From Blasia pusilla (taxonomy: Eukaryota): a DNA stretch of 64,000 nucleotides. Under the pieces are notes generated by a model, which did not search any database, was not told the DNA's origin, and saw nothing but the letters and a program-made list of their open reading frames with translations. The position numbers were made by a program, and so were the translations under genes. Every line of letters begins with the position of its first letter. Positions within the stretch are counted from its first letter, which is position 1. The stretch lies in contig CM114271.1 in the NCBI GenBank assembly GCA_050084515.1, positions 45,136,001 to 45,200,000 on the forward strand. The letters run 5' to 3'. Shown here one piece after another: positions 9,524 through 61,495 of this stretch.

Positions 9524-9565
9524 CTAGTTAGGACCCGTGAGTAATCTGTGCGATGCACGGTCCCT
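9524..9565 (-). mobile_element. Helitron 3' terminus
   Basis: Minus strand CCGTGCATCGCAC..CACGGG hairpin-like sequence followed by CTAG|T. Confidence 0.55.
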
Positions 9566-10333: not shown

Positions 10334-11114
10334 TTAGCATCTCGCATTCGACATGAAACTAATGACACAAATGCATCCTAAATTCAGCGCACCATACAAC
10401 GACATCTTCCCTCGTCCACAATGGATCCCAGTCCTCAATTTCTCATCAGGTCATGGGCATGTTTAAAATTGTTGAATATCTATCTACTCTCATTTTTCAA
10501 ACCTTTCTCTTGAAAGATGCTATTACCGCCTGCGCCTACATGATTCTTCATGGGAGTCATGGACTGTTTGAAGGCAGATGTCTTTCTCACCCAAATAAAT
10601 TTTAGTGGACAAATCCGTTTCCAAACATGGTCTCGGCAATCTCAACTCAAACCGGAGTGGAACCCTCCGATAGCACAGGAGGGGCATTTTCGTGTTGGAC
10701 ATTACATTCTACTTCGGTGAAATCCACGCCTCAAATTGGTGGGCACTCAAATCGATGGCAAGTACAAATGAGATGCTTTGTATCTAATACTGGTTCTTCT
10801 TTTCCTCTAGCTCAGCTCGTGTATTCCTTTTAAAAGAGTCCGTGCTTCAAACCTGCTGCGATGGCCGGAGGTTGGGATCTTGCACGCGTACGAGGCTACC
10901 TCGGACAGAATTTTCCTTCTCTTTATCCTGAATGTCTGCTCCATTCAACCCTTGATTCCAAGGCTGAACTTCGAATGAGAGTGCCACATGTATCGCATGC
11001 TCCTGCGAACTCTGCGTCTCACACTAGAATTGGCACTCTCGCATAGCCAATTTATGAAATCTCTTCTTGCGGAGTTATGCCGCGATGGTAGTGACCAGTT
11101 TATCACCTGTCAGG

Positions 11115-19115: not shown

Positions 19116-19297
19116 TATTTGTTCTAACGGATCTTTACATGATACACTTCATTAACAAACGAGAAAGAGTTAAAAGAAGATTTTATAAAAATATTTAATT
19201 ATAATCTATTTGTTTTAACGGATCTTTACATGATACACTTCATTAACAAACGAGAAAGAGTTAAAAGAAGATTTTATAAAAATATTTAATTATAATC
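19116..19297. repeat. 91-bp tandem duplication
   Basis: 19116-19206 and 19207-19297 are identical except for one substitution. Confidence 0.95.
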
Positions 19298-33500: not shown

Positions 33501-36500
33501 CAAGAATATATTTAAGATTTTCCTCCCAAACAAGATTGAAAATTAAAAGTAATGTAGAAAGAAAGTCTCTCTCATCATTTTGACAAATACTTCATGTCTC
33601 GTCATTCTCATTATCCTTTTTAAGAATTTTCCAAAACATTTATTCATTTTCCATCCAAGCTAAACTAGAAAATTGAAAATTTTAACTCTTTTTTTAAATG
33701 AACCTTTAATCCAATAAATTTTGTTTTTAAAAGGAGAAATGATAATGAAGGACACTAAGGATGCTTTCGTGGAGATTGGAAATATTTTAAACAATCTAAT
33801 TTAAATTTATGCTAGCAATTGAGGATGGGTTTAACGCCCTTCATCGTGTTGAAAGCTGTAATTTTAAAGGGGGAGTCAAATTAAGGAAGGAAGAGGAGGG
33901 AATTAAGTTAAGGGGAGGGGAGAGGAGAGTACATATAAGGACAAGGGAGTCAGAGAGGGGAAAGGCAGATTTTTTTATAAATATTCTTCAAATATATTTT
34001 CTCTAGCATGGGCAACACTGTAGTTTAAGATAATTATGTAATTTTAATTAAAAAGTTAAACTTTAAATTTAAAACTTACACTAAAATGTTTTTTTAATAA
34101 AAGGAAAAATCATGAATTAATCGAAAAGTAAAATTTTCTCCTTAAACTTACTTTTCAATTTAGTATGAGGGTAAATTAAAAGGAGATAGGATAGGTGGCA
34201 TTCATTCATAGGCTTAATGCAAATAATGGTACCATTATCTTCTACATAAAAGGAGCCCACGATAATTTCATAACATTAGTGTGTTCTCATTCCATATGCG
34301 AGATTAAATTATCTCTCAAAACAAGAATCAAGCCTTAGAATTATTAAATATCATTTAAAATAAAGGCGAACAATCCTAGTGACAGGAAGTGCCAATTGTC
34401 AAAAGACACTCTCCCTTTACATGTGGTGTGTTTGTCTGATTCGGGTAAAGTTCGGTATCCGTGCCTAATGGATTTTGGAGAAGGCCAATATCTACAAGTA
34501 TGCATTTCATTGTTTTCCTATCCTACAAAGATGGATGTCCACACTCCCATCTCACTCGCTCTCTTTCATGATGGAATGGGAAAGTGGAACCCGTTCTGAT
34601 GAATAAGCTTCCTATAAACTATAGTAGGCGAGTCCGCCTCGGGATTTTGGTGGTATGCATCTTTTCATCACATATGCAAGTCGACCGCGTGCGTTTGGAT
34701 ATGTGAGGTCATTGTATAATTGGCATGGTTGATTAGAACCTTGATTGCAAGACTAGTAAGGCGCTCATGCGATGCACACAAGAGGTTAAGAGTTTTATTT
34801 TGGTAAGTTGCTAACAATTTTGGACATACAAATCATGCTCAAGTGGGGTCTTTGCCCCAAATGCGTCACATGGTATGATCTCTATAAATTTTCTTCCATC
34901 CAAGTATTTCTTTTTACAATACATTTCATGTAGAGTCACCTTCCTTATTTAAATGTTCATCACTTCGAATGGTAATGTGGATGGAACTTCTCTTCCCTTC
35001 TTTAGATAATGCTACGTACAATTGACCATGAGAAAATAGGGTACTAGGCAAGTAAAGATCAACCTTTTGCAAAATTTGACCTTTAGACTTATTAATAGTC
35101 ATAGTAAAAGTTGGCTAAATAGCGAATTGAAATCTACGTAAATCAAATCGCAAATTGGAGTAAAATGCAATTAATGGGATGCATGGAATAAAAACTTGAT
35201 CTCCAAGATTCTTCCATGTGATGATTTCAACATTTATGCAGTGTTGCATAAGTCCATGAATCACCAATCTAGTTCTGTTTGTTTGTCCATGTGATCCGTT
35301 CATGTTTTGTAAGAGCATGATTGGTGCACCAATCTAAAAGACAAGCGATGCGGAGATAGTCCAGAAGTCAAGCATGTGTTCAAAAATTCAATTCGATAGA
35401 TATGACTCATCCCCTCATTTGGAATAGAATCAGCGTTGAGCTTAATATGCTCATGTACACAATATGTATTGAATTGGTGAGATTAAGTAGTATTACTATC
35501 CAAGAAACCAAGACATGATATCTCCATTTATTTTGTGAACATCCTTATTTCTCGATGTCAAAATAGCCATGTCTCTCAAGAAATAAATTTCATGGAATCG
35601 GATATGAGAATTGTAATGGATCAAATCAATAAGATAGCATATTTTATTACTATTAGTGATAATTCCACATGATAATTGTATAAAGTCTTATCCCAAATAA
35701 GGATGCAAACGTACACGACCCTCTCCCACTTCCAATAATCAATCATAAAAATCTTGTTGTTAAATACGCAATTGACCTTCCAAACTTTGAACTTACATGT
35801 TTGTTGTCAACTTCATGACCTTTACATTAGACCAAAGACATGACTTGTTTATAGAGGCTTGGGCGATTGGCGACCAACCCCTCTGAAGAACAACAATAAA
35901 AACTTCACAAAAGTTACAACCAAATATCATGAATTTTCCACAATATGGTATTTGTTGTAGATCATCAGAGATTGTTCCCGTAATATATTATAAAGAGCGA
36001 TTCACAACCTTGAATGCATGACGATGAGCAATAGGTGTTTTTTCCCATACAATAAGCATCACATCACGGATGAAACGCGCTTTGTCACTATTGATTGAGA
36101 AACTACAAACGACTCAGGGAAGTAAATTAGAATTTGCAACACATGATCAACGTAAGAAATTGTATGCACTGATATAATTAGACGTAAGGCGGGTAATGAC
36201 ACTTACTTGCAAGTAGAGCTCTCATAAAGATTCATAGGGATCTTGAAGTGTGAATGGGCAATATGTTATCCATCTAACAATAGAGCAACTATTTCGGATG
36301 ATGCTACTGCCAAAATTATATCTCTTGCACTCCTTACACTTACAAGGAGAAGATTATATAAATATAGCTTTCTCATTCCACTTGGACCATCAATGAAATA
36401 TTTTTTTGGAGATGGTGGAGCATTCCTACATATTTTATCAAGCTCATGATATATAGAATCTTGTTCCTCCAAATATGAATGTGAACAAAGGCTTTGGAAA

Positions 36501-37532
36501 TTAGCTTGGGGCATGTTAGGAAAGTCAAACAGTCTCTTTCCTTGATCTTGTAAGTAATAGTGAACTTCCAAAAATGCAATATTGATCATAACATCATCAA
36601 AGGAAAGATTAGAAATTCCTATTTTCTCCAATGGAAAAGTTTTGAAAGGTGTTCAGATCATGGTTAGTTTCTTTAATGCTCAATAGAGGGTACTATTAGG
36701 AACAAAACGAAGTATTTAAGGAGTGATCGTGATGATTTCTTATCTCACATTGCTCCCATAAGAGATATTATATGAATGGAACCAAAAATGACTCCATAGC
36801 GAATGGAACCAAAAATGACTCCATAGTGTAGTAGCTAGTTGGGTCGGTGTGTTGTAAGCTAGAATAATTACAAATAGGTGGCAAAGTAAAGAACCCGTAC
36901 GGATCATAAAATCTTCCTCAAAGCAAGAGAACACTTCCCTATCAACCTCGAGAAGTCCCAATTGGATTGCAATCTCCTTGAATGTTAGACATAATACTCA
37001 ATCAATAGTTCTCAAACATTCGTATATATATAGTTGCTCCTCAAACATTATGGAGTAATCTTAGCCAATGACGTTCTCCTTCACCTATGGATGAGTGAAA
37101 TAAATTACCTCATCCCTTTCCACAATAATTCATTCACTTTTGAGGATGGAATATAAAACAAAAATCTAATGTACAAAAAATAGCATATAATTAACTTTTG
37201 AGTATTTGCATAGATGAGTATGTATATGTGGCCAATGGAATGACCACAACCAATTTTTTTGTATCCTAAAAATTCATCTTTTTTTAGTCCAATGATAATA
37301 TGAATGAAAAATCTGTATACATATATTGATAGGCAGTGGAGTCAGATAGATAAGTTGTAAACCATTATGTTAGAGTTGTCTCTCTATTTAGTTGCAAAAC
37401 ATCTTTGGGGGCGTCAACATCATTGAAGTACACCATTTACTACTCTGGAAGATGAATAACTAATTGCACAGTACTTGGAAGTCCAACATGTAGACTAAAC
37501 TTGAAGAGTCGCCAATATGCCTTCATAGAAGA

Positions 37533-38106
37533 TGTCGTGCGAATCCACATCGTCATACAACATACATCGTTGACATACCATACTCACATACATACATAAC
37601 ATAGACGAGAGTATCCACAAACACAAGTGTACCACAACTCGAAATGCGTGAAAGACCTACTGTCATAAAACACGTTTACAATCACATACAATCGAGCCAA
37701 ACCCACTCCACGATGGGAGAATCTAGGTCGAAGCTTGCGGGAAACACCATAGCCAAGAGCTCTACTCACTACTAAGGCTAACTCCCAACGCAATAGGCTC
37801 AACTCAAAGAACTGACTGTTCTTTGAGTGCACTCCACCTTATATCCTCCAACCTAAGAGCGGGCCCTATTGGGAAAGTCACCCCCAACCCTATGTATGGA
37901 ACCGCATCTCTACCAATCCACTACGGTCCTACATAAGGAATGGCCTCTACTAGCACACCATACTCTATGACATAATCCGTATCGTCATGACAAATTATCT
38001 ATCGTGAATCCACATCGTCATACAACATACATATTTGACATACCATACTCACATACATACATAACATAGACGAGAGTATCCACAAACACAAGTGTACCAC
38101 AACTCG
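37533..38106 (-). repeat. 3' terminal block B1 (38106-~37996), A2 (37992-37642), B2 (37641-37533)
   Basis: B1 and B2 are near-identical ~105-bp repeats; A2 matches 46887-47252; the PPT AGGGGGG (38113-38107) abuts B1. Confidence 0.92.
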
Positions 38107-38276
38107 CCCCCCTAACTAGAGGTTAGGTCCCTCTAACTCCCAGGTAGCCCTATACATCTACTACATGCTATACACCTTCTTGGGTGCCCGAATCAGAAGG
38201 CCGGGTGCTAGGTTGCCCCATCGTTAGTCGCACATCTGTAATCCATATCATGCAAAGATCAAGTCATCTACCTCTC

Positions 38277-38420
38277 CTAAGTACATCGAGGACAAACCCA
38301 CCTTCCAAGAGGAACAACATCCAAACGTGGAGTCAAACACATCATGTGCCAACCCCTAGAACACCGATCACACACCAACATACGGGTGGGTTACCAAAGC
38401 AGACCCACACAACATGCACC
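38277..38420 (-). pseudogene. PHD finger at the C-terminus of pol (copy 1)
   Basis: CMLC..MLVCDRCSRGWHMMCLTPRLDVVPLGRWVCPRCT-stop (C4HC3), with one frameshift. Confidence 0.9.
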
Positions 38421-41230
38421 TCAAGCTAGCACGTATCATGGCTAAGCTTGGGTCAAGATACCATCCACATTTGAAGATGACATTGCGCACAATTACGCAC
38501 ATGGTCCTTCCAAACAACTTCATCACGACCCTCCAACATGAGAACTCCGAAGCTAACACTCGCAAGACTCATAAAATAGTGCGGCTGCCGTCACATCCAA
38601 CGTTGTCGGGGCAATCTGCTGCAAATAGACATAGTCCCCACATGGAACCTACGAATCGATGGTCGATAACCTCCACACTCGAATGGTTGCATACCGCAAC
38701 GTATCCCTGTGTTGAGCAATGGCAAGATTCTCAAAGGCGGTTGGCATAACTCTCCGAAAGAGCTCCGCTCGCTGAGAACACACCCTCATCCACATCTCTC
38801 GGGTCATCAAGGTTCACCACCTCACTAGACTCTCGACAATTGCTCTTTGGCAAGTCCGGATCTCGGCCGTATAAAGAAAATAAGGTGAGAAGGAAGCCAA
38901 GGATGCTTGGCGATTGAACCTATACCCCATGGCTAACCATGGCAACCGAATATCCGGTCTCCAAGATGCCCCTTCAGAGGCCATACTTGCGCAATGCCCT
39001 CTTCACCGCCTCGAACCACACGCCAGCCAAACCATCCGCCCCGGATGATCTCGAGACGTGGTCCGATGATCAATCAACGCCTTGTCACACAAGACCTGAA
39101 ACTCACCTTGAAACTCAGACTGGTCGGTCGGTCAAGACTTCAGCTGGTGCACCAAAATGACTAAGCACTCTATCAGAAACGATACGCCGTTCCTCACTCG
39201 CCTTGTCCGGTAATGCCACCAACTCAATCCACTTGGAGAAGTGCTCCACCATCACCAACACATATCGATGATGTCAAATACAATCAACGGTAACGGTCCC
39301 GCATAAAGTCCACACTCCAACGGTAACCCAACCCCATAATAGGCAAGGGGTGTAATTGTGGTGTAGGGGCATTAAATGATGCCTCACCCGGTCACAAACC
39401 ATACAACGTGACACCAATCGCTGCACTGAGTATGCATGCCACGCCACCAATATCGCCAAGGAGTAAGCTATACGACGCTTTACCCCAAAATGTTCCAACT
39501 CCTCATGGGCATGTCGCACAATGCGCTCTCTCTGGAGCCAAATGTGGCACTACTCGTACTCTACCATCCTCCCACACGCGGAGAATATGTGTTCCTCCAA
39601 TCGATACCTCTTAGCACGTTGAAGAACACGGTCTCGCTCCTTGGCACTCACTATGCCCGGCACCCTACTGGTCCGTAGGAACTCCAACACCAATGCATCA
39701 TCATGAATATCACGTTGATCCATACCACCATCTCCAACCTTAGGATCTGAAGGTTGGACATCTACCCTCTGACTAGAGTAAGATATCACGTGGTCCTCCA
39801 TACTAGAGTCCACCCCTAACCAACATAAAAAGGTGGATGCATGCCAACCTGGCACCATCTCCTCATCAACCTCGCCATGCCATCTAGCCCTTGTTGTATC
39901 CTCTTGGCTAGTACATGGGTTCCTACTCAACCCATCAGCATCAAGGTTGGCAACCCAGGTCTATGTACCACCCGGAAGTCATACTCTGTAAGATAAGAGC
40001 CCACCGTGCAAGCTTCCCCGTAAGCTTGTCCGACTCCATCAACCACTTGAGCGGTTGGTGATCAAGAACAAGGGTAAACGGGTGCCAAACAAGTAACACC
40101 TAAAGTGTGCCACAGCCCCCACACTCGCCAAGCACTCTCCCTCATATGAACTATAGCGACTCATTGCATTATTCGAACGACTTGCATAGGCCACCACAAA
40201 CTCCATGTGCTCATCATCATGTTGTGTCAACACCGCTCCAAGTCCCAACCTACTCCAATCAGTGTGTAATTGGAATGGGCGCCCTCTGATAGGTCTCCTC
40301 AAGATAGGCGCCGCCACCAATCGGGCCTTAAGCTCCACAAAAGCTCTCTCCGATCATCTCCACAAGTGCCACTCTTGATCTGATTTCAGCAATTGGTTCA
40401 AAGGCTTTGCCATAGCACTAAATCCCTTCACATACCTCCGATAGTAGTTCGCCAATCCCATGAATGCTCGAACTCTACTCACATCTACCGGACGCGGAAT
40501 AAGTGCAATAGCCTCCACCTTTGCTTGTGAACTCCCAAACCACTTGGATAGATCACATGACCCAAGTACTCAACATCCTCATGGAAGAACTTACACTTTC
40601 TGGATCCAAACGTAGACCATGAGCTTTCAACCGCTCAAACACCATCTGCAAATGTATCGATGCTCCTCCACCGTGTTATTGAACACCAAGATATCATCAA
40701 TGTAACACCGAACAAAATCCAACCCCGCTAGGATCCTCGCCCATCACTCTTTGAAACTCGGCAGTGCATTCTTCAACCCAAAGGGTAAGAATTTCCACCG
40801 GTACAAACAATCCTTTCCATGAGAGTTGACACCCCAAAATGTTGTCTTGGGCTTGTCACTCTCCGAATCGGCAATTGATGGTATCTCGCTCAAGATCCAA
40901 AGTACTGAAAATCTTTGCCTGTCCCACCACATCAAAGATCTCCTCAGGTGTAGGCATGGCATACCTATTGGCCTTGGTTTGCCGATTGATAGGACGGTAA
41001 TCTCCACACATCCGCCTATCCGTGTAGTTGCCATGTATATCCTTTTTAGCAGGCATGACAGTGGCTGATGCATACTCTCCATGCGACAACTCCACTAATC
41101 CAACCTCCAAAAGGTCCAACGTCCTACTCTGAATCAAGTCCCTCTCCATATCACTATATTGGTAGGGACGACGGAAGATTGGCGTATCACTAGCCAAATC
41201 AATCCGTATACCGGGTCCAACCAGAGAACC
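38420..41230 (-). pseudogene. RT, RNase H and integrase of copy 1 (frameshifted)
   Basis: RT RRMCGDYRPIN..YAMP, FLPFGLKNA, CYIDDI; RH FQLHTDWS..VVAYASR..YEGECLA; IN HEELEHFGVKR..CMVCD, VEHFSKWIE. Confidence 0.92.
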
Positions 41231-41639
41231 CAACTCCTTCATGCTAAAGGCAAAACAACTCCTATAAGCACATAGGAAGTGTGTCAAGCGTCGTTTCTCA
41301 CCTCCCGTAAGCTTGGGCCCAAGTAATGGCTCCCAAGTCTCCTCCACTGGCACACTAGAGGGAGAGGACGATGCCATTGGTCGCACGTAACCCCTCACAA
41401 GATGGTACACCCTTAGCTACACCATCATCTCGAGCAAATAACTCCTCCACCAAAGCATGAGCAACCAACTCCACATGCCCACCATTACATCCCATTACTC
41501 CAAGGATGCAAAAATACTACTCCTCGCCTTCACCGATGCCTCTACCATCCCGGTAGCCATCGAGCTCATTACAAGGGGTGGAAGACCCACAGACATAGTC
41601 CGAAGTCGACGCTGCTCGGCCATACCAAGACTCAAAATC

Positions 41640-42570
41640 CAAGTCAAACAATTCAGGTACATGGCCTGACCCAACACATGACGTCGTGAAGCCTCGAAAT
41701 AGAAGCAATTTGTCACACCGAGAGCAAATCCCATCGCACGCTCTCTCTCATCAACGTTAGGCTCCACCAACGCCGCACATGAGAATCCCATACAAGCCCG
41801 GGACCACCTTCCCCGTAGGCATGTGACGCGGGAAAACTCACAAATGTGGGTAGTGCCATCCTAGGTCTGGCCCACACGGTTCACCACCGCCATGGGTGAC
41901 CAATCAATAACCTCACCACTTGAGAAAGTCGCCAAGATTCAAGAAACTATCCACCGTAAGGCGAGGATCCCGCCAGACCGCATCATATGCTCGACGAGAA
42001 CCTCCCTAGGCAACAAGTTTGTCCACCACAAGCGTGGGCGATGTGCACGCTGAGCCAACTCGCGGCCAGCATCCAACAACACCGCTGGTCCAATCCAAGA
42101 GCGCACTCATGAACACTCGCCATCATCCGGTCCGAGTGTCACCCAACAATGGAACATTCTCCGAATGTAAGCTAGAGCACGTGCTCGATGAACTGAAGAT
42201 GTCGTAACACCCGTAATATCTCCCAAAACAATCGAGACCTAGGGTCATGTAATCCCTCACCACAACCAAAGACGTATGACCCGACATGGCCATCCAAAGC
42301 AATCACCAAATCCACAGGACCAACCTCTCAAGGTCCTGCGCTTCAACAATGCAATGTGTGATGGTAAAGCACGCTGGTACCCACGAATAGCCGATGGCGG
42401 CAACAACTCAGGATATCTCGCATCAATCGACCAATATGTCGGGATGAGACTCTCGGGCCGTCTCATCTTGCTCCACATACACGTATCTCCAAGACAGAAT
42501 ACCGCCTGCAACACGCCGCCAAACCAATGCTAATCCCACCAAAGAGATCTAACACACAAATGCCCTCCGC
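41640..42570 (-). pseudogene. DNMT3-like C5-cytosine DNA methyltransferase domain inside pol (copy 1, frameshifted as assembled)
   Basis: Motif I VLDLFGGISIGLAA; II RYVYVE; IV GPVDLVIA-GWPC; GLHDPRSRLFWE; VI ENVP; IX/X ERERAMGF..RRHVLGQAM. Confidence 0.9.
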
Positions 42571-42999
42571 GGATACCGCCATACAATGGGTGTAGTATCC
42601 AAAGGGGTAACCTAATGGACTGAAGTAGGAGTCCGTGGGGCCTCCTCTTCCTCGTGAGGTATAGACCTCACACCAAGCCTCTGCACTAGGCGACGCCTCT
42701 TGCCGTAGTGCACCGCTGAACTCCAAAGTGGCACATCCAACGATGAGGATGCCATGCTGCAAAAATAGGGACCTCCTCTACCTCCTCATGCGCAGGAGAA
42801 TCCATAGCGTAAACATTACCCTCCAAAAGTCTCTGGCCAAGTGACTACTCCACTAAAACCACCACAGATGCTAACATCTTTGGGGAAGACCCTCGGTCGA
42901 GCCCCATAAATAAATCTCACAGAACTTGGCTCATACGTCCATCCCGATCGCCAACCAGGTCTGTCAGAAGATTGTCTCGACCCAAGAATCCATCTGAAA

Positions 43000-45200
43000 A
43001 CCCATCGGGTACAATATTGCTCCTCCAACTAGTACATCATACGACTCGGATGATGTGACTACCTGCAGATACTCCCAACCGGAGCTATCGGTCGCATGAT
43101 CTGGTCTCAACTGCAGAAAACTTCTCCCGTGTCATGAATTGAGACCTATCATTGGCTCTCCAAGTGATGTTTGAATCTGGAATGGGCAAGGCTCAAGCTC
43201 GACCTCCGAATACCCAAACCAATACATGCCGCCTTTCCCAACATCAAAGGTTGGGCACCGTGAGTCTAACAAGACTCTATCCGGTCTATACACCTATCCC
43301 TGTAGGACTCACCAATCGGAAGATCCCACTCCGGTTGTCCAACATACATACACACGGTGTAAGCCTCTCACGATCAATGGTGGCCGGGTGGTAATGCATC
43401 CATCTTCGCCGCCGCCGCCGCCAAGTAGCACCGGGTACTCAATGCTACTCTCGACATAGAGGGTCGCTCCACCGCAACACCCTCATCCACCTCAACACGT
43501 AGCAAGAATACCCCACGTTCACACAACGTGGTCGCTAATCAAATACAGGAGCTAAGTCAACTCCTAAAGCCATCACCCGTGGCCGAAAACAATGGGGATC
43601 CCAACACCGAAGTTGCCATCCGCACATCGCATTGATGTCGATCCGTGTCTACTACACGCGATGTAGATGCCTCGATCCCCACTGCCGGCTCAATAGGTCG
43701 CTGAGGAACCATGGATGGAGTCCTAAGCACCTCAGACAACAAGAATGACTGGGAAGCCTAGCCTGTCTCCCAACCTCACCCCCTCTGTGGGTCCAACTCC
43801 ACAAGAGCACCACGTGGCTCGATGCTCGAGTGGCTCCTCTCAGAATCGCACGGTGATGCCTCAACCTCGGCCGCACTCGCCATATAAGAGAGATCATCCC
43901 TCCATAAGAGGTGGAAGCCCTTGCTCCCGAAACGATCTATCGCCGGATACCGACCATAGTAGCCAACTCGCGCTCCAATGCTCAATCCTCGGCAGCCATA
44001 GTCGATTGTCGAGTGGTAGGGGTAGCCACCATAGGCTCTCCAACCACCTGGTCCACCTCTACCACCCCTACCACCTCTACCACCTCGGCCTCTCGGAGCT
44101 ACTCCACCACGGCCACGGCCCGATCTCAACTCCGATGAAGATCAAAGCAACGCTCGAGGATGACCTAGTCTCCCGCAATGATCACACTGAGTTGGGGCCG
44201 ACCGAGGCCCATCCTCCAAAGTTCGTCTCCCATCCTCTTGGGGACAAAACTTCCTAACATGATCACCTCCACATGTCCAACATGATCGCCCTTCGCTGAG
44301 GCAGCAAATGAAGGCAATGGTCTCTGCACAAATGTCCTCTAGGACTTGATGAGGTCGCGTGTACCCCCCCACGACTCCCACTACTACTACCACCACCACT
44401 ACTACGAGATCGTGAGGTGGGCGGTGAACACGAGAAGTAGTAGTTGTATCCCTCTTGAATGCGGATGTCACCACTCTCTCCTTCACCATGTTAAGCTCAA
44501 TCTTCTCGAGATAGAGCAAACACATGGGTCAATGTGGGTGAATCATCACTCATAAGAGTAGCATCACGCACCCTACGGCGCAAATCTCTCGCCCAAGATC
44601 CCATACCAAAAATCGATCGCTCGATCCTCGTCACACCCTGGTAAGGTAATGAAATCAAGCGCCGATACGCGTGTATGCCTCACGAAGACTCTCACCGTCT
44701 TTCGCTCAAAGTCCTGAAGATTCCTCAACTTCTCCGTCTTCACTCCTTGATAGTTCTTCTTCAACCTCTTGAAGAACTCGCAATCGGCTAAACGATGGTG
44801 GGGCACTAGTACCCCCACTAGTACCTCCACCGGTATCCCCACTCCGGCTCAGACTGCATTACCACTCAAAGATCGGATCGGGCCGGGCATAGTAGGAGCA
44901 CTACTACCAATACCACCATGGGTGATAGACACATAGCCGGAGACCAATATTGTCTCCATGCCTCAATCTCATCAATATGGTCCTTCCTAAACTCATGGTA
45001 ATCATCCATGGGTGGTCCTTCCAAGTGTTGAAACAACCCTTCCAAGCCAAGAAGGGTGTAAACAACGCATGGCGTTCCGCAACATCTGCATATCACACCA
45101 CGTATCAAACTCGCATGAAGTCCTCCGACTCAATGGTACCCACTGCACCGAGTATCGCCGTGGGCCCTTCATGGCCCCATATCCACCGTCCATGTCCCAA
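43000..45200 (-). pseudogene. gag (two CCHC knuckles, RGG tract) and aspartic protease of copy 1
   Basis: CWTCGGDHVRKFC, CDHCGRLGH, GRGGRGGRGGRGG, and RVLLDS(G)AQPLM at ~43240-43280. Confidence 0.85.
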
Positions 45201-46874
45201 ATCAATGGAGTGCAACACTCGATAACACCGAGAAGACTGGGGTGTTTGGAACACCTCGCCCTCCTCCTCTTCATCAACCGTCGGAAGTGGAAAAGGTAGC
45301 CGATACCTAAATCCACTCCGTGTGAAACCACCACTGCCCACACCACGGTCCCCAACCAGACCACCCGACAGCTCCGTGATGACCAACGCCGATGCCGCAC
45401 CACCACCAAATTACCAAGTGACGTCGATGTCGCTATACTATTCTAGCTCTACTAGCTATGGGTGTAGGCAACCTAACTTGTCATCACCACAAGAAGTCTC
45501 CCACAATCTACTCGTCATCCCTCCAGCCTCACTACCGCTAGCACACAGGAGTAACACTACTCCGAAATCGGCGTCAACCCTAACAATGGGCGCAAAGCAA
45601 GAAGCACGATGGAGGGATCCAAACACAGAAATCCAACGACAACCCTCCAATCGCAAATGGAAATCAAGGTAACACAATCCACCAAACGTGGTGCCCTCTG
45701 AATCCACCAAACCCACCACACAATTCTAACGCAATAGCTACTCCCCCGCGGGTTGATGACGTGCTAGTCGAACGCGCAACACCTGAAAATATCACCTGCA
45801 TGGAGAGGCTACACCGTAATATGCGCTAGAGGTACATCAACCAAAAACCTGAGATGCATAAAGCGCCTAACACATCTCCGAACAGCACCAAATGAGCTAC
45901 AACAGTCTGTACACTGGCATAGTTAAGAACTCGGCAGTTAAGCGTCCTCCAGGCAGAATAGCCCAAAGATGGGTGACCAGTTATGCAAAACTCAAATCCC
46001 AAATCCTGCAAAAATTGCCTCACGCCCAAGCAAGCAAGCTTGCTTGCTTGCTCCTTGCTCCTTACTCCGCCTCTCACGCCCACTCGCCCCGAGCTACCAC
46101 GAGTTGCCTCGAAGCCTCGAAGCCTCGAAATGCTCGAGACATGCCCCTATTGCCCCGTTCGCCATGCTTCGCTATGGAGAGAGGTCCAACTAGGGCGCCC
46201 CCAACGGGATAGGCATCTCCAAAAATGAACGAGTCACCAACCAACCAGCCCCTCCGATCCGCTGTCCACCATAGCCAGACCTTGAGCTAGTCCGCGAAAT
46301 TTCGATCAGAAATTACTTCACAAATACGTGACCAAAATCAAATCTATTTCGATCAGAATTCAATTGACCACCATAGCTATCTCCCCACAAAAACTCAGCT
46401 ACAACCGAGCTCCGTACTCCGAGCTAAAAATCAGACAAACTTCTTTGTCCATACACCTCTAGAACCCAAATCCGGATAGCGCTTCCGCCAAGTTTCATGC
46501 ACGCGAGAAATCCGCAACGCTCCACGCACTCGAGCAGATAGCTTCACATGAGATCACAATACAAGTAGCAATAGGAACCTCTCACCCGATCTGGATGGAC
46601 TTCAACAGAGCTTCCGCACTCCAAGCTCTCCACATAAGAAAACTGTCAAACACGAACAGAATCTTCAATGCTTGATAACTTCCAACTCCTTGACGAAATC
46701 CGGCGATCTACAGCGTTGGAAAGCTCTCAGCAAGGCGCTTCTTTCCCAACCAACCACGCACCTGATTCACACCTCCAACATAGGCAACAAGCCCCGAACA
46801 TCCACGGCTGAGTACACAATCGGCCCTAACCAGATCCCTCTTGATCTACAATCAAGCTACCATCGATCTACTCC

Positions 46875-46886
46875 AGTTCTTTGAGT
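46875..46886 (-). promoter_or_regulatory. Self-priming primer-binding site
   Basis: ACTCAAAGAACT directly after A1 is the exact reverse complement of AGTTCTTTGAGT (47058->47047), which starts 30 nt after TATAA (47088). Confidence 0.8.
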
Positions 46887-47252
46887 GAAATGCGTGAAAG
46901 ACCTCATTGTCATAAAACACGTTTATAATCACATACAATCGAGCCAAACCCACCACGATGGGAGAATCTAGGTCGAAGCTTGCGGGAAACACCATAGCCA
47001 AGAGCTCTACTCACTACCAAGGCTAACTCCCAACGCAACAGGCTCAACTCAAAGAACTGACTGTTCTTTGAGTGCACTCCACCTTATATCCTCCAACCTA
47101 AGAGCGGGCCCTACTGGGAAAGTCACCCCCAACTGAGTAACCCCCAACCCTATGTATGGAACCGCATCTCTACCAATCCACTACGGTCCTACATAAGGAA
47201 TGGCCTCTACTAGCACACCATACTCTACGACATAATCCGTATGGTCATGACA
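46887..47252 (-). repeat. 5' terminal repeat A1 with TATA box
   Basis: Matches 37642-37992 with a handful of substitutions and ~3 indels; no B segment attached. Confidence 0.92.
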
Positions 47253-50200
47253 AAGACATATATCTGGAAGAAATTATGTCAAGTATTCAAGTAAGGAGAA
47301 TGAAAAAATAAAATTTAGAAATAAACTATAATTCAAAAAAAAATCATCAATTGGTAGAATCATACTTTGTATTAAGATATGAGGTTGTCTTATCAATGAC
47401 TTCCATTACATTGGATGTATCCATATTTTTTAACAAGTTAAGTATCACTATATCAGACCCCTTATATACATATTTATATAAGTTCTTCACAAAAAAAACA
47501 TTACTTGTGATCTCTTAATTAATATGACAATCAAAGAGGGTGCACAACATAGATATTTATTGATCTTGTGGTCAATTCACATTTCATGGATCAATAATAT
47601 TCGTATAAGATTTATTTTAAATAATTAAAGATTTGGCTCCTTGAATGATTTCTTAACCTATCATTTTCTTTCAAAGTAAAATTTCCAAATTTTTCTCCGT
47701 ATAACGACCCCTACTACTCTCACATATAATAAATTCTCTCCCTCGTATTGCCATGTATGGTTTTTGTGGCATATGGGTACTAAGTAGATTCGTAGTGGAG
47801 AGGCTCCATAATGCAAGTTATTTTGTGACAACTTCTCAATCATAGATATGAATGGAGATGTGAGCCACTTAAAAATGACTTTCGGATTTATTGCACTCAT
47901 GTTAGCATTTATCTACTAACCCTCCATATAATCAACCACATTCTTCCTTGGTATTAAGACTTTTTTTTGTACTTTCTCCAATCCCTTTGTATTAATCCTA
48001 CAATCAATTAATCAATCAAGCAATCAATGCAAGAAAATTTTAATTTTTTCTTTAATCTTCTTTCCAATTCGGTAAGTAATTTAATTTTTCTTTCGTAATT
48101 TAATTTCCTCCCCTTCAATATTATTGTCTGCCTCCCATAATACCATTATGAGCGTTAACTTACTTTGACGTACTATGAATGACTGAATGAGTGCGACTTG
48201 TGAAATGTTTTCATGAAGCCAGTTCATGAAACCTCTCTAATTTTTAAAATTTTCCCCTATACTAAACTTAGAATCTGAATTAGGGGAGAGTTTAAATAGT
48301 AATTTCTTATTTACTATTTATAATTATAATTATTAAAATAACTTAAAAATAAGAAAGGAAATATCCCCATTGGAATATTCCAAATTCTCCCTCGTATCTC
48401 TTAATTTTTTAATCTTAAAATCTAAAATTATTTCTTCAATTTTATCATAAAAAAGAATACTTTTCAAATTTCGTTCGGAGGGAAAATTGATTCATCTTCT
48501 AAGAAAAATAACAGGTCAAATTTATTTATTTTATTTTTTCAATCGAAGCATGAGAATTGAGAAATCTAGTATTTTCTAATTTATTTAAAAAAATTTAAAA
48601 TAAAATCATCATATATTTTAAATTTTAAATATATTATTTTAATTATATTTTTAATATTGGAATGTATGTGCTAAAAATTTTTCACACTATTTTCTGGGAT
48701 GCACGGGCTTAGTTATCTCCCAAAATGGTAATTAACGTTCAAACTATCAAATATCATTCAATTAATTTCAAACGATCTCATTAATTGAGATTATATCAAA
48801 TGAAAAAATTGAAAAAAAAATACCCTCCGACAATAATATACTAGTTAGGACATGCCAGGGCGTTGACGAACAATTTCTCTGTCAATTTTCAAACCATGTC
48901 TAGATGACGTTTAATTCCGAGAGAAATTCAATGACACAACAAGCAACTCTAGAAATGGACTCGTAGAGCCATCCACGTAGACAACACCATGAACATGGAT
49001 CTTTGTTTAATTTAACATGCGATGTCACTATCTTTACCAACATCTATATATGGTCCAAATTATAACGACCGTAAAATATGGTTAAAAAATAATAACATGC
49101 GTCAACCATAAGAAATAGAACTGAAAACACAGCATCCTCCAACTAAGTAGCAGATATATATTACCTTTCGTTCCCGGTAATCTCACCCGAACTTTACCAG
49201 TGGTTCTTGATATCGGAGACAAGGCGGTGTGGACGAGAAACGCCAGATCGTGCGGAAGCCAGAATTCCTATCAGCTTACGCTCGCAAGCTTATGCCTCCG
49301 TTCCAGCTGGCTCTCGGCGAGTGGCTACCGTTCTCCGGTAGCTCACAAGCTGTTTGGTGAACTTTGGTCTCTGACACGTGTGTGGAAGGGAGACGAACAC
49401 CGGTTCCTTCCTTTCTGATTGGTTGGGAAAGAGTAGGGAGTGAGAGTGAGCGAGATGGAGGGGGAACATTCTTGTCAACGCACCGACTTGACACGGCGCC
49501 ACGATGCGCGCGCGCGTGGATGGAGGAAGACCACCGGATGCTCGCCAACGGCTGGGAGTCTCCTTCGGACGTAGCCAGCCAGCCGCCCGCACGCCCGCAG
49601 CGTCCGTAGGAGAGTCTGCTCGCCTGCGATTCGACCTTAAGCCGCCTCCAATCCAACAGTAGTTAGTTAGGCGACGTACATATTACATACACTTCAGGAC
49701 TGTCGTCGACAACTACTACTGAAGCTTCGGGATCCCCCGGCTTCGATGTTTTCCCGAGGCTCCGTAGGGGAACTGGATCCTCTCCTTCAGCTGAATATCT
49801 ATATATCCATCGGCGATGGACACTCGAAAGACTTTCGATCGGCTGAAGTGTCTCCGCTCGGAAGTGAGTGAGGGAGAAACGCCGCGAGCTACCGACTGAA
49901 CCGCTTGTGGTTTTGCGATTTATCGAAGTGAGGCACGTGTCTGTCAAGCGAGACGATCGGGAAAGGAAGTGTCCGTTTCGATCTTCTCTTTCTCTTGCTC
50001 GCGATTAGATTAGTGGATTGCGTCTTGAAAGTGGAAACGTAAGTGTGTGACGGTTGAAGCTGCCCATGCATATCTACTGGTAAGGAAGGGGAGAGGGGAG
50101 AAGAAAGTCCATGAGAAGTAGAGCATTCCACTCTTGTATAAGCTATGTTTAAAAGTAGTGAGTGCGTTTCTTTCAATGTTCCATCCAGTTTTTGGTGTGC

Positions 50201-50749: not shown

Positions 50750-51400
50750 CCCCATGTCATGCACACTCCAAATTCGTGCTTTAACTATGCAGTTGCATCC
50801 ATTACCGATCATGAGTTTAGGTTACATAAGGAATTCAGATTTTACAAAGCCTTCCATATGGTGCATCTTAGCCATATGATGTAATTTGGGGGTATGAAGG
50901 CATGGCAAATGGAGCCATAGGACTTGATGATATGGTTGCAAGAGATTTGTACCATTCTCGTGAAGGTTTTAAGGGTCGTGTATTATGGACCTCGTATACG
51001 GGGCTCCTTTGATCATTTTTCACTTATCGAATCTTTCCAATCCAATAAATATCTAATGGTATCATACTCATAAATTTCATGAGTTGAAGACCATTGCATG
51101 CCCACAATCATCAAAGATCTCTCAAAGGATGGATATTACATATTTATTCGCATTCTACTGATTGATAAGTCGATCAATAATCTCGAGACAAGTGCTTATT
51201 CATCTAGGTGTCATCCATATCATTCTAGGAGGGTATGAGTATGACAGATGGATACTCTCCATGCAACATCTCCATTAGTCTTTCCTTGACCATGTCTTGG
51301 CTTCTGTTCTAAATTAAGACGTTCTCCATATCACTTTATCTATTGGATCATCAAAAGACGAATCCATGGAACCTTCAACAGTCCCAATGTATTATGCTAA
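50750..51400 (-). mobile_element. Highly decayed retroelement integrase-like debris
   Basis: Scattered motifs (HLSYSYPP.., YGSICHAFIP) resemble an integrase core and C-terminal region; no open frame. Confidence 0.25.
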
Positions 51401-54214: not shown

Positions 54215-54492
54215 GTTGTCGTGCGCATACATATCGCTACCCAACATACATCGCTGGTCACATCTACGCCACACAACACCGATCTTCCCCACACACGGGT
54301 CGATCCACATGTACAAAAATCAACTCATACATATACATGGAGATCACACAACGTTGTCGTGCGCATACATATCGCTATACAACATACATCGCTGGTCACA
54401 TCTACACCACACAACACCGGTCTTCCCCACACACGGATCGATCCACACATGTACAAAAATCAACTCATACATATACATGGAGATCACACAAC
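54215..54492 (-). repeat. Tandem pair of ~139-bp B repeats (54215-54352, 54353-54492) next to the PPT
   Basis: Near-identical direct repeats, each starting GTTGTCGTGCGCATAC on the plus strand. Confidence 0.95.
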
Positions 54493-54567: not shown

Positions 54568-54715
54568 CTATACACATCTCGGACACATCCATCGTCCCGT
54601 GGGAACCAGATCAAGAGGGGGGGTCAGACATGACATATGCCACCCTTGAGAACAACCATCACATACCAACATGGTGGCTGCACCCCTCGTAGATCCGCAC
54701 AACATACACCTCAAG
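54568..54715 (-). CDS. PHD finger at the pol C-terminus (copy 2)
   Basis: CMLCGSTRGAATMLVCDGCSQGWHMSCLTPPLDLVPTGRWMCPRCV, an intact C4HC3. Confidence 0.92.
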
Positions 54716-57630
54716 CCTGCAGATACCACTGCCAAGCTCAGATCCACCGTCCCATCTACGTTCGGAAGATGACATGGCGCACAATTGCGCACATGATCCT
54801 TCCAAACCATACCATCCCGTCCCTCCAATATGAGGACTCAGGTCGGTAATACCTTGCGCACACGTAGGATCGTGTGCCCTGCAGTGACATCTAGCGTCGT
54901 AGGTGCCGCTTGCTGTAAATACACGTAACCTCTAGGATGAAACCTCCTAATACCTGGACGATAACATCCTCCATGAATGGTCGCGTACCTCAATGTATCT
55001 CTATGCTGGGCAATAGCTAAGTTCTCAAAGGCCATAGGCATAACTCTAAGAAAAACCTCTGCCCTCTGAGAACATGCTTGTACCCACACATCTAGATCAT
55101 CAAGATCTAACACCTTCGTCATGTCACGTTGAATCGCTGCAGGTAAATCAGGCTCTCTCCCAAAGAGCAAAAAGTACGGTGAAAATGTCGCCAAGGATGC
55201 CTGCCGACTAAAGCGATAACCCATAGCCAACCATGGCAACTGTAGGTCCCACTCGCTGAACTGTCCCTTGCAAGCCATACTTGCGCAATCCTCTCTTCAC
55301 CGTCTGTACCACTCTTTGCGCCAACCCATCCGCCTCAGGATGATCTCTGGACGTGGTGCGGTGATCTATCAGCGCCTGATCACACAAGGCCTCAAAAATC
55401 TCCCCTGAACTCGGTACCCTGGTCTGTCAACACCTCCGCCGGTGCTCCAAAGTGACTAAGCACACGATCTAGAAACGCATAAGGTGTTCCCTCGCTCGCC
55501 TTGTCTGTAGTGCCACCAACTCTATCCACTTGGAGAAATGCTCCACCATGACCAACACGTAGCTATGATGACACCCCGTCAATGGCAAAGGTCCGGGAAA
55601 GTCTAAAATCCACCGATAACCTAAACCCATAATCGGCAAAGGATGTAATTGCGGAGTGGGAGCATTGAAGGCTGCTCGCACTCTGTCACATACCATACAT
55701 CTGGCCATAAACTGCTGTACCCCATTAGGCATGCCGCGCCACCAATACTGAACCTGGAGTTAGCTGTAAGTACGCTTTACTCCAAAATGTCCCAACTCCT
55801 CATGGGCATGTCGCACTACACGTGCTCGTTGGGAAGGATGAGGTACCACTTGTATCCTACCATCTCCCCATACCCGCAAAATGTGAGTCCCCTCCCACCG
55901 AACCTCTTGGCTCCTCAGAGGATCCGATCCCGCTCCCTAGCACTCACTGTACTCGCAATGACGCCAGTGCGCAAGAACTCCACAACCTCCACGTCGTCAT
56001 GGATATCACGACCACCTGTCGCCTCCTCACTAACCTCCGGATTGAAAGACTCATCATCCAATCCCACCACTGGAGTCATCACTTGTGGCTGACCTGCCAT
56101 AGTCAACCAACAAAGATAGGCAGATGCATGCCAACCGGGCACCATCTCCTCATCACTCTCTCCGTGCCATCGAGCTCCTGTGTCGTCTCTCTGACTCGGA
56201 CATGGGTTACGACTCAACCCATCCGCATCCAGGTTCAACCGAATTGGTCTAACTCATACTCTTGTAGTAATAGAGCCCACTTGGCAAGCTTTCCCGTAAG
56301 CTTGTCGGACTCCATCAACCACCTCAACGGTTGATGATCAGTGATAAGTGTTAAAGGGTTGCCGAATAAATAGCACCTGAAATGTGCCACAGCCCACACT
56401 ACAGCCAAGCACTCTCCCTTGGAGGAGCTGTACTTTGCTTCTGCAATGTTGTTCGATCAGCTCGCGTAAGCCACAACAAACTCTCTCTCCTCGTCATCCC
56501 TCTGAGTAAGCACTGCTCCTACACCCAACATGCTCCAATCTGTATGTAACTGGAATGGGCGACCCCTAACCGGTCTCTATAAAATGGGTGAGGACGTCAA
56601 CCTGTCCTTGAGCTCCTGAAATGCTCGTTCTTGATCATCTCCCCACAACCAAACCTGATCAAGTCTCGTCAACAAGATCAAAGGCTTTGCGATCGCACTA
56701 AAATCCTTGACATACCGTCGATGGAAGTTTGCCAGTCCAAGAAATGCTCAGACTCGACTCACATCTATAGGGCGTGGAATGTGCGCAATAGCCTCTACCT
56801 TTGTCTGATGAACGCCTAACTCACTCGGGTATATGATGTGTCCCAAGTACTCAATCTGCTCTTGAAAGAATCTGCACTTGCTTGGATGTAACTTCAGTCC
56901 ATGTAACTGCAATCGCCGAAACACCTCCTCCAAGTGTCGCTCATGCTCCTCAACCGTGGAACTGAAGATAAGAATATCATCTATGTAACATCGTACAAAA
57001 TCCAAGCCAGAAAGAATCCTATCCATCACTCTCTGAAACTGTGCAGGTGCGTTCTTCAACCCATATGATAAGAACCGCCATTGATACAAGAAATCTCTTC
57101 CGAACCGATCTATCCCCCAGAATGTTGTCTTCTCCCTGTCCTCCAACTTGATAGGAAGTTGATGATAGCCAACACGGAGATCTAAAGTACTGATGATGTT
57201 TGCATGCCCTACCGCATCAAAGATCTCATCAGGAGTAGGCATGGCGTACAGATCTGACCTCGTCTGTCGGTTGATAGGACGGTAGTCTTCACACATCCGC
57301 CTATCCGTCCAATTTCCATACATATCCTTCTTCTTCGGCATGACTGTGGCAGATGCATACTCCCCATGTGATAACTCCACAAGTCCTACCTCCAACAAGT
57401 CCTGACTCCTGCTCTGAATCAAGGCTCACTCCATATCAGAATACTTGTAGGGTCGACGAAAGATTGGCGTATCACTAGCCAACTCAATATGTATCCCGGG
57501 ACCCTTCAGTGTACCAAAGTCTCTCATACTGAAGGCAAAACAACTGACATGCCCTCTCAGAAACCTATGAACTCGCCGTCGCTCTCCTCCTATCAACTTG
57601 AGACCTATCACAGGCTCCCAAGTCTCCATT
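54716..57630 (-). pseudogene. RT, RNase H and integrase of copy 2
   Basis: ORFs 56748-57422 (DYRPIN, YGLKNAPAQFQR, YIDD), 55469-55732 (CMVCD, DFPGPLP) and 54838-55278; contains stops and frameshifts. Confidence 0.93.
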
Positions 57631-57924
57631 GTGACCTCACTCAGAGAGGATGCAACCTCCGGCTGTGGTTGCTATGTAGCAACCCTAGCCACCTCCGCAA
57701 CAGCCACTCCACTCTGACCTCCTACACCATGCTCCACATCCAAAAAATAAACATGTGCTACTCTAGACGCCTTTGCACTCTCTGCTCAAACGACGTCCCA
57801 ACTAGTCCATGGGTGCCTATCTCTCCTCATCTCGCCCCCAACCAATGCCTGTACAGACCCTGTAGGCAATGGTCCAACTTGTGGACGTGACGACATGGAT
57901 GACACTCGCATCCGTCTCTGCTCA

Positions 57925-58600
57925 GCCAAACCTATCCATGTGAGACAGTTGAGGTCCATCGTCTGCCCCAACACCTGTCTCCGGAAAGCCTCAGTCATCC
58001 CTTGCACCGCCATAGTACCAGTAGCAAACTCCATGGCGCGCTCGCGCTCATCTGCTGTAGGCTCCTCCAATGCTCCGGTCACCTCATCCCAAATCCTGCC
58101 TCACCCTCCTTGACGAAAGGCATGGGATGCTGGGAAGCTCACCAACGTAGGTAAGGCTGCCCTCAACTCCCCCATCCTATTGGCCATGGCCAACGGTGGT
58201 CTATCATCGCGTGTCACCACCTGAGATCGACTCCCTGAGCCTCAAATAGCATCCACTATGAGATGTGGTGCTCTCTGGACTCCATCGTATGCTCGACTCA
58301 GTACCTTTGATGGTATCACGTTTGTCCACCACAATTGTGGAAGATGGGCACGTGATCCAACTCTCGCCGCATCTAATAACACAGATGGTTCCAACCAGGA
58401 CCTCACCTGATACACACTCGTCATCACATGTGCACGAGTATCTCCCAACAATGGCACGTTCTTCAAGATGTACGTTGGAGAACATGTCTGACTCTCCTGC
58501 AAGTGTTGTACTACTCGCAGCATCTCCCAAAACATCCCTGACCTCGGATCTTGCAATCCCAATCCTCGGCCAGTTGATTAATGACCCTAACACCCTCCTC
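57925..58600 (-). pseudogene. DNMT3-like domain of copy 2 lacking motifs I-IV
   Basis: GLQDPRSGMFWE, ILKNVP (motif VI, E>K), LLDAARVGSRAHLPQLWWTN (VIII), LPTLVSFPAS, ERERAMEF..RRQVLGQTMDL (IX/X). Confidence 0.88.
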
Positions 58601-60790: not shown

Positions 60791-61495
60791 TTAGACACCA
60801 TGTCTCAACCGCTCAAGCACTCAGACTCACCGAGAGTCTCCCACACGCCTCACTAGCTCACCTATGCTAAGATCAATCTCGTGATGACATACCCGGCCTC
60901 ACGCACACTCAACACTCGGGCTCATCATGAGCCTCCCAACTAACTCACCTAACGTAGCGACACTCTCTCGGGTCATACACGCGACCCCTACTCGGCAACT
61001 GCAGTATATCCATCAATATGCTACACATGAAAAGAATCTACACTCATCACCATTGCTACACCCACCTAGCACCAGCTACTACCCGCTACCTAGCACTCTC
61101 AATCACACACAACAAGTGCAGGAAAAGGGACTCGAATAGGTAACCTCATCATGCCCTCCAACCTACGACATCATCAACACGCACTCCCCCATGTGACATG
61201 GAAACCTCATGACTGACAAACTCCCGTCGCGGATCCCATCCACGCTTACATATCACCAAATGCATAAACGAGCTCCCATTGCACAACTCGCCTCAACCAC
61301 GTCCAATTGTTCAACCTCGTAGCCAGAGTCAACCTGATCTGGCTCCACTCCTACCACGTCAACATGACCCCGACCACATTCGGCCTTTCCCAACCACATC
61401 CGCACTCTCAACCACGTAGCTCAACGTCATCCACGTCCGTTGTCCAACTATGTAGGTCACTTACCACGTCGATATCCTCACCGCCACCACGTTAC

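Follow-up and report, generated by a model that had tools for sequence, protein, structure and literature searches.

A decayed Gypsy-type retrotransposon with a DNMT3-like cytosine methyltransferase domain in Blasia pusilla, and its relatives in bryophytes and green algae

The methyltransferase domain and the element that carries it

We analysed a stretch of 64,000 nucleotides (nt) from Blasia pusilla (contig CM114271.1), here called the window, in which a DNMT3-like cytosine methyltransferase had been predicted from the sequence between the protease and the reverse transcriptase (RT) of a retrotransposon. The domain belongs, with little doubt, to a Gypsy-type retrotransposon in a decayed state, which occupies positions 37541-47254 of the minus strand and is hereafter called copy 1. 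We consider copy 1 to be a dead member of a large green-plant family of Gypsy elements that carry a methyltransferase and to which the published KnitGypsy-Dnmt3 kind also belongs, and assign this interpretation a probability of roughly 0.9. A three-frame translation of positions 42900-41400 on the minus strand contains the motif strings of a C5-methyltransferase in colinear order but scattered over the three frames (VLDLFGGISIGLAA, RYVYVEQDE, GPVDLVIA, GWPC and GLHDPRSRLFWE, followed by ENVPLLGDTR, AHRPRLWWTN, ERERAMGF and RRHVLGQAM). All of the strings quoted in the original prediction were recovered in this strand and order, and motifs I (LFGGISIG), IV (GWPC), VI (ENVP), VIII (AHRPRLWWTN), IX (ERERAMGF) and X (VLGQAM) succeed one another in the canonical sequence.

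A frameshift-aware alignment of positions 42800-41450 to an intact protein from Marchantia polymorpha, P0002, yielded 252 identical residues among 362 aligned pairs, with 16 frameshifts and no stop codons. The alignment spans positions 42611 to approximately 41500, and the domain, which had been placed at 41640-42570, is thus located there but is somewhat larger. In tblastn searches, P0002 and a second Marchantia protein, P0011, matched the same stretch with E-values from 1e-41 to 1e-55. When read with an X at each break, the domain of copy 1 scored 259.6 bits over positions 4-336 of the 383 positions in a family profile, which was built from 14 members, none of them from the liverwort and moss clade described below; 59 of 200 shuffled sequences scored at all, the maximum being 2.3 bits.

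The region from 38000 to 47000 has a GC content of about 0.50, as compared to 0.37-0.42 in the flanks, a strong negative GC skew and open frames on the minus strand. The full order of copy 1 is very probably repeat A1, gag, protease, DNMT3-like C5-methyltransferase, RT, RNase H, integrase, PHD finger and the repeats B1, A2 and B2 (Table 1). In both copy 1 and a second element, copy 2, the methyltransferase is preceded by gag and protease and followed by RT, RNase H and integrase according to tblastn, in agreement with the predicted position. The pol order of Ty3/Gypsy elements, protease-RT-RNase H-integrase, was recovered in the window by Pfam and tblastn searches, and the Pfam domains RVT_1, RT_RNaseH_2, Integrase_H2C2 and rve are all significant in two related proteins, P0034 and P0214. 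No Pfam match was obtained for the gag-like region of copy 1, in which CWTCGGDH..C and CDHCGRLGH are readable within the open reading frame (ORF) at 44142-44528. The strongest segment of the protease region (43299-42973) is 55% identical to P0002 in tblastn, and Pfam matches to aspartyl proteases were found at the corresponding place in the relatives P0018, P0034 and P0214. The N-terminus of the RT is contained in the ORF at 40856-41416, the Integrase_H2C2 match is weak (15 bits, below the Pfam cut-off), and residues 810-827 of P0023 matched the PHD finger remnant at 38381-38328.

Instead of the simple pair of two identical long terminal repeats expected of a Gypsy element, the ends of copy 1 consist of split direct repeats in the layout A1-coding-B1-A2-B2, of which A1 and A2 differ by 7% and three indels. 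A fragment of an ORF for a PIF1-like helicase (PF05970, 38.3 bits; 36266-36652, minus strand), which may be a Helitron-type remnant, adjoins the 3' end of copy 1.

Table 1. Coordinates of the three element copies in the window and the basis for each assignment.
Feature	Position	Strand	Basis
Copy 1, 5' terminal repeat A1, 368 nt	46887-47254	-	93% identical over 370 aligned nt to 37641-37994
Copy 1, gag-like region, two CCHC-type knuckles, frames broken	44142-45193	-	tblastn, P0002 residues 1-231 to 45193-44503
Copy 1, gag-to-methyltransferase interval with protease-like stretch, frames broken	42755-44035	-	tblastn, P0002 residues 386-811 to 44035-42755
Copy 1, DNMT3-like C5-methyltransferase domain, motifs I-X	41500-42611	-	Frameshift-aware alignment and family profile
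Copy 1, RT, broken	40601-41416	-	tblastn, P0011 residues 696-902 to 41335-40601, 56% identical
Copy 1, RNase H	40039-40353	-	Pfam RT_RNaseH_2 85.7 bits, RT_RNaseH 60.6 bits
Copy 1, integrase (zinc-binding domain and core), broken	38616-39726	-	tblastn, P0023 residues 357-730 and P0016 residues 1098-1237
Copy 1, C-terminal PHD finger remnant, one internal stop	38283-38420	-	C..C..CDRCSRGWHMMC..CPRC pattern, frame 1
Copy 1, internal repeat B1, 101 nt	38006-38106	-	98% identical to 37541-37641
Copy 1, internal repeat A2	37641-37994	-	93% identical to A1
Copy 1, 3' terminal repeat B2	37541-37641	-	98% identical to B1
Copy 2, gag-like ORF, CCHC-type knuckles, 248 residues	60066-60812	-	tblastn, P0002 residues 171-668 to 60794-59205
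Copy 2, protease region, LLDSGAQPLM	58577-59735	-	tblastn, P0011 residues 6-383; motif in ORF 59271-60065
Copy 2, methyltransferase remnant, after motif IV to motif X	57786-58577	-	P0001 translation; alignment to P0002 residues ~990-1245
Copy 2, RT	56748-57425	-	Pfam RVT_1 110.1 bits
Copy 2, integrase	54838-55897	-	tblastn, P0023 residues 399-827 to 55897-54619, 43% identical
Copy 2, C-terminal PHD finger, end of pol	54571-54837	-	Pfam PF00628 44.6 bits, cut-off 24
Copy 3, internally deleted derivative of the copy 2 subfamily	6638-8130	+	gag-protease part fused to 3' end region

Copy 2 extends from approximately 54570 to 60812 and is about 72% identical to copy 1 at the DNA level over pol. Its methyltransferase remnant lies in one frame, with four stops in the aligned stretch; motifs I-IV are deleted and ENVP is replaced by KNVP. 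It scored 216.6 bits against the family profile, over positions 113-329 only. Nothing significant was found in Pfam for the gag-like ORF. Both copy 1 and copy 2 are dead, relics without function. No terminal repeats were found for copy 2, only a 138-nt tandem (54215-54492) located just 3' of the PHD stop codon, which recurs in reverse orientation in copy 3 (7910-8130). The tandem may represent a diverged B/A repeat region of the copy 2 subfamily, though no matching 5' repeat was found.

Copy 3 contains two segments that match copy 2 (6638-7827 to 60157-58979, 72% identical; 7910-8130 to 54579-54357, 80% identical) and is without methyltransferase, RT or integrase; tblastn gave no methyltransferase or RT match on the plus strand. 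Its end block is repeated once more at 8609-8742. Another Gypsy RT remnant, at 51085-51339, shares 66% identity with positions 40906-41159 in the RT region of copy 1 and has a weak tblastn match to P0016. Elsewhere in the window, a plus-strand ORF of 206 residues (63301-63921) with a zf-C17orf113 zinc finger (PF25431, 52.6 bits) resembles a domesticated or transposase-related protein, and an AT-rich unit of 91 nt is present in two tandem copies that are 99% identical (19116-19297). The observed/expected ratio of CpG is 0.78 in copy 1, 0.69 in copy 2 and 0.48-0.83 in the flanks, and is uninformative on past methylation.

Affinity of the domain and its relatives

Among the solved C5-methyltransferases, the domain is nearest to DNMT3 by sequence, profile and fold. 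A phmmer search against the PDB with the methyltransferase part of P0002 identified 54 distinct sequences at E<=1, of which DNMT3A was the best match (2.4e-11), followed by DNMT3B and DNMT3C, and thereafter by tobacco DRM (5.8e-5), HaeIII, DNMT2 and HhaI. The profile of an alignment of 14 domain-only family fragments (A2), with a mean column identity of 31%, matched DNMT3A with 85.8 bits, DNMT3C with 83 bits and DNMT3B with about 81 bits, as compared to 59.5 bits for tobacco DRM, 47.6 bits for Arabidopsis DRM2 and approximately 39 and 36 bits for HhaI and DNMT2, respectively; DNMT1 and chromomethylase were absent from the 57 matches at E<=1. An AlphaFold model from A2 (pLDDT 88.7, pTM 0.88) recovered chains of DNMT3A, DNMT3B and DNMT3C only among the matches listed by Foldseek (best E 7.6e-21, target TM 0.80). 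The catalytic Cys and the Gln of PCQ, the Glu of ENV and both arginines of RxR are invariant in A2. The likeness to DNMT3A that had been noted for the window was confirmed through the Marchantia relative, for which the alignment to DNMT3A displays VLSLFDGIATG, GPFDLVIGGSPC, ENV, SAAHRARYFWGN and EMERVFGF..RQRLLG. The host enzymes DNMT3A, DNMT3B and DNMT3C share with the family domain the canonical order of motifs I-X and are its best matches throughout, but they are only 22-24% identical to it in structural alignments. PWWP and ADD domains were not detected, and the family domain comprises about 340 residues within a retrotransposon polyprotein, as compared to 285 residues for the catalytic domain in solved chains of DNMT3A.

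Of 2024 candidates in a word-based search with P0001, the read-through translation of copy 2, 22 proteins reached E<=1e-3, and a precomputed PF00145 (DNA_methylase) assignment exists for 17 of these. In a fresh Pfam scan of eight relatives, PF00145 scored above the 22-bit cut-off in five (34.9-44.3 bits) and not in P0006, P0016 and P0023; it was also matched by further relatives, among them P0034 and P0214. An exhaustive phmmer search with the domain of P0002 retrieved 3587 representatives, defined as clusters at 50% identity, at E<=1e-3, with 850 at E<=1e-10 and 252 at E<=1e-30. The best 150 matches are 34-89% identical, mostly over nearly the whole domain, and many of the proteins are 1000-3456 residues long. 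The bulk of the matches are unnamed proteins from metagenomes or assemblies. Named members include the bryophytes Marchantia polymorpha (many proteins), Calypogeia fissa, Sphagnum fallax and S. troendelagicum and the algae Scenedesmus sp., Cymbomonas tetramitiformis, Chlamydomonas eustigma and Monoraphidium neglectum. Klebsormidium nitens is represented by one protein, P0317, which scored 112 bits against the family profile.

Several relatives combine the domains of the element within a single protein. Zinc-knuckle gag, protease, methyltransferase, RT, RNase H and integrase are joined in P0034, and the 2358 residues of P0214 contain protease, methyltransferase, RT, RNase H, integrase and PHD finger in this order, while methyltransferase, RT and RNase H are present in P0011. 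P0317 and P0011 are colinear over a stretch that begins behind motif IV and reaches the beginning of the RT (24% identity, E 4e-7), and the methyltransferase is therefore located upstream of the RT in K. nitens too. Among 344 proteins with the domain, the methyltransferase precedes the RT in 24, the RT precedes the methyltransferase in 68 (59 of which also have an integrase after the methyltransferase), only an integrase follows in 42, and neither is present in 210. The 68 proteins represent a second architecture, with the methyltransferase between RNase H and integrase (P0032, P0049, P0061, P0223, P0225, P0084 and others).

We also scanned metagenome contigs, in which 80 loci were identified, and examined 18 with long flanks; none of these belongs to the liverwort and moss clade and they are at most 42% identical to P0002. 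The order gag/protease-methyltransferase-RT-RNase H-integrase-PHD was recovered in 17 of the 18 loci, with one (L055) rearranged. The complete layout A1 ... B1-A2-B2 is present in six (L002, L006, L022, L027, L044 and L050) and the B pair in two more (L021 and L028), for which A1 is expected beyond the end of the contig; the other ten have no or weak repeats. One locus (L002, positions 5636-14960 of a 55-kb contig) contains a nearly intact element, with 92% identity between A1 and A2, 94% between B1 and B2, and ORFs of 407, 847 and 385 residues that correspond to protease, methyltransferase-RT and integrase-PHD.

For a phylogenetic analysis, we hand-picked 69 of 346 proteins (named taxa, both architectures and six weak matches as an outgroup) and added readings of the two window copies. 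The tree was inferred with a quick IQ-TREE run under LG+G4, with SH-aLRT support only and without canonical DNMT3; the program warned of long-branch joins, and six rows, P0317 among them, have less than half of the columns filled. The 65 element rows, including P0317, are separated from the six outgroup rows (SH-aLRT 97). Both window copies fall within a clade of 11 rows (SH-aLRT 100), of which the other rows are proteins from Marchantia and Calypogeia, the two Sphagnum proteins and an unnamed one, and their closest named relatives, as judged from this placement, are liverworts and Sphagnum. The proteins with the RT before the methyltransferase form one clade of 24 rows (SH-aLRT 98), which is nested among rows with the methyltransferase before the RT and includes named chlorophytes. 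Because the proteins with the methyltransferase between RNase H and integrase form one clade, the tree suggests that the methyltransferase may have been relocated a single time within pol.

Comparison with known elements and alternative explanations

The original prediction cited retrotransposons with DNMT domains from dinoflagellates and Klebsormidium, and these are indeed described as SymbioDIRS-Dnmt3 and KnitGypsy-Dnmt3 (de Mendoza et al., 2018; PMC5890265). According to the tree and the legends of that study, the K. nitens element domains are placed with Dnmt3, and the elements combine Gypsy domains with repeats of the type found in DIRS elements ("A-coding region-B-A-B"). The acquisition is treated there as specific to the K. 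nitens lineage. Copy 1 shares with KnitGypsy-Dnmt3 a non-rearranged Dnmt3-type domain inside a Gypsy-type pol, for which a low Ka/Ks is given in the same source, as well as the A-coding-B-A-B repeats. We infer from the species and from the adjacency of methyltransferase and RT that P0317 is a copy of KnitGypsy-Dnmt3. Together with the repeats, the score of P0317 and its domain order support the proposed kinship to the Klebsormidium elements. The differences are that the window copies belong to a separate, well-supported clade of liverworts and mosses, that a PHD finger is present here at the C-terminus of the integrase, whereas the term has no occurrences in the main text of PMC5890265, and that the relatives found here span chlorophytes and bryophytes, whereas the acquisition was described as specific to the K. 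nitens lineage.

SymbioDIRS-Dnmt3 likewise has a Dnmt3-type domain inside pol and A-coding-B-A-B repeats, but in combination with a tyrosine recombinase and a DIRS-type RT, whereas the elements described here follow the Gypsy order and have an integrase of the DDE type that includes an H2C2 zinc domain. It is presented in the same source as the only class of retrotransposons with a DNMT domain shown to methylate CG de novo in yeast. Elements of the PAT/Ngaro type, as far as they are described in PMC4157794, have the same A1-B1-A2-B2 repeats, with the internal pair 3' of the coding region, but with tyrosine recombinases in place of the DDE integrase that accompanies the split repeats here. The passages on these elements in PMC12344493 and in a 2026 preprint mention only "streptophytes (Gypsy-DNMT3)", with no finer taxa. 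In our literature searches, neither members from liverworts, mosses or chlorophytes nor the PHD finger nor the two orders of domains were found described, although supplements may contain some of this, and a search with six Marchantia gene identifiers returned no papers. The kind of element is thus already in print, and what is new is the reach of the family into land plants and its breadth.

In chromoviruses, a group of Gypsy elements, the integrase ends in a C-terminal chromodomain. They resemble the elements described here in having a chromatin-reader module at this site, but differ in that the reader here is a PHD finger and a methyltransferase is carried in addition.

Several points weigh against the interpretation of copy 1 as a member of this family with a DNMT3-like enzyme domain. 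PF00145 was matched by none of the three uninterrupted methyltransferase pieces of copy 1, which are short, and by none of three methyltransferase queries from copy 2, and a search of the PDB with P0001 gave no methyltransferase but only a chance match to RecJ (E 0.29). We attribute this to fragmentation and, in copy 2, to the loss of the N-terminal motifs; the Pfam check that had been proposed with the prediction was thus negative for the window's own pieces and positive for five of the eight intact relatives. The ratio of nonsynonymous to synonymous substitutions (dN/dS) between copies 1 and 2 is 0.17 over 241 codons of the methyltransferase, but its dS of 2.25 is saturated, and its dN of 0.384 is lowered, as identity is raised, by the reading of copy 1 having been picked by alignment to a family member. 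The corresponding ratio for RT-RNase H is 0.12 over 392 codons; in both cases codon pairs were derived from alignments to a family protein, a procedure biased towards conserved readings. The label "DNMT3-like" is taken from the nearest solved structures and the published K. nitens tree, and not from a phylogeny of our own. The link to KnitGypsy-Dnmt3 depends on a single partial and degenerate K. nitens protein, P0317, and a figure legend, and in our tree P0317 falls in another clade of 12 rows (SH-aLRT 100) that is not sister to the liverwort and moss clade. Finally, in the only activity test published for this kind of domain, no methylation was detected when the K. nitens domain was assayed in yeast, as reported in PMC5890265.

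The last observation would also be expected if the domain were a non-catalytic module in this family, either a pseudo-enzyme or a DNA-binding domain. We consider this unlikely, since 14 members, at a mean column identity of only 31%, all retain the catalytic Cys in PCQ, the glutamate in ENV and both arginines of RxR, and since dN/dS between the two window copies is far below 1 in the methyltransferase. The yeast result for the K. nitens domain was itself called inconclusive by its authors, because human DNMT3B had failed as well.

We also considered that the 16 frameshifts in copy 1 might be indel errors in the assembly, in which case the real copy would be intact and possibly active. In four public runs, the numbers of contig pieces that align to positions 41400-42800 at an identity of at least 90% are 25719 (X1), 307 (X6), 11 (X3) and 5 (X12). 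The 5-11 contigs from X3 and X12, which may be RNA runs, are 90-99% alike and are therefore from paralogues. Contigs contain an indel in the phase that restores the frame at 3 or more of the 16 frameshift places (41866, 42296-42300 and 42454, among the 12 of 74 indels listed), which indicates that, at these places, the frame is intact in other copies of the source organism. The possibility of assembly errors gains some credit from the identity of 70% at the amino acid level, which is high for so many frameshifts, from the best run containing just 0.53 of the sampled 31-mers of the methyltransferase stretch, and from the depth in X6 with frame-restoring indels at the three places (776/776, 2815/2837 and 698/791, respectively). 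However, the family has thousands of copies, so that paralogues dominate the depth, and X1 also has depth that matches the window at these places, which are moreover only 3 of the 16 and were judged among the 12 of 74 indels listed. The RT, integrase and PHD finger of copy 1 are broken too, and the 7% difference and three indels between A1 and A2 fit an old copy. An intact copy 1 disguised by errors thus seems improbable, and we retain the interpretation of copy 1 as a decayed element.

That the domain is a fragment of a host DNMT3 gene beside retrotransposon debris, or was captured in a single copy, as might be suspected from the broken frames and from no ORF in the window joining protease, methyltransferase and RT, can be dismissed, given the methyltransferase at the same position in copy 2 at about 72% DNA identity, its union with the RT within P0011, P0034 and P0214, the same order in 17 of 18 metagenome loci and the 252 representative clusters at E<=1e-30. 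The original prediction had named absence from other family copies as the sign of such a one-off capture; the domain is present in the second copy of the window and in many related contigs. As a whole, the prediction of a retrotransposon-encoded DNMT3-like methyltransferase was supported for its position, its affinity to DNMT3 and its kinship to Klebsormidium elements.

Possible function and significance

Neither of the window copies is capable of methylation, targeting or end regeneration, and any functional consideration applies to intact members of the family. In these, the pol polyprotein would place an S-adenosylmethionine-dependent C5-methyltransferase beside the RT, and new cDNA, or the DNA near the insertion, might thereby be methylated at cytosines. 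Methylation of the cDNA or near the insertion is a hypothesis put forward by de Mendoza et al. (PMC5890265), and we regard it as possible, with odds somewhat short of even, that intact members of this family methylate their cDNA or the DNA flanking the insert. The PHD finger on the integrase could read the state of histone tails and guide the choice of target, as the chromodomains of chromoviruses do, and the A-coding-B-A-B repeats would imply that the ends are regenerated in a DIRS-like manner.

Retrotransposons that carry a class of enzymes normally used for their own silencing are rare, and published cases are confined to dinoflagellates and a single charophyte alga. Copy 1 and its relatives show that close members of the Gypsy-DNMT3 kind exist in liverworts and mosses, and more remote ones in several green algae, with a tool kit of methyltransferase, PHD finger and split direct repeats that is constant across members. 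This spread with a constant tool kit speaks against a one-time, recent acquisition in Klebsormidium. We tentatively suggest, though we consider it less likely than not, that Gypsy-DNMT3 elements may constitute one old lineage of green plants, characterized by the DNMT3-like domain, the integrase PHD finger and the split repeats and not private to Klebsormidium. Two domain orders would exist in this lineage, one with the methyltransferase before the RT (the bryophyte type, the Klebsormidium type and others) and one with the methyltransferase between RNase H and integrase, which would be a derived clade with chlorophytes. The lineage would have persisted in land plants, with thousands of copies in the source organism, some of which are better framed than those in the window, and may still be active, adding de novo methylation to the bryophyte epigenome. 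Marchantia, as a tractable model plant, offers a place in which the role of an element-borne DNMT3 can be tested.

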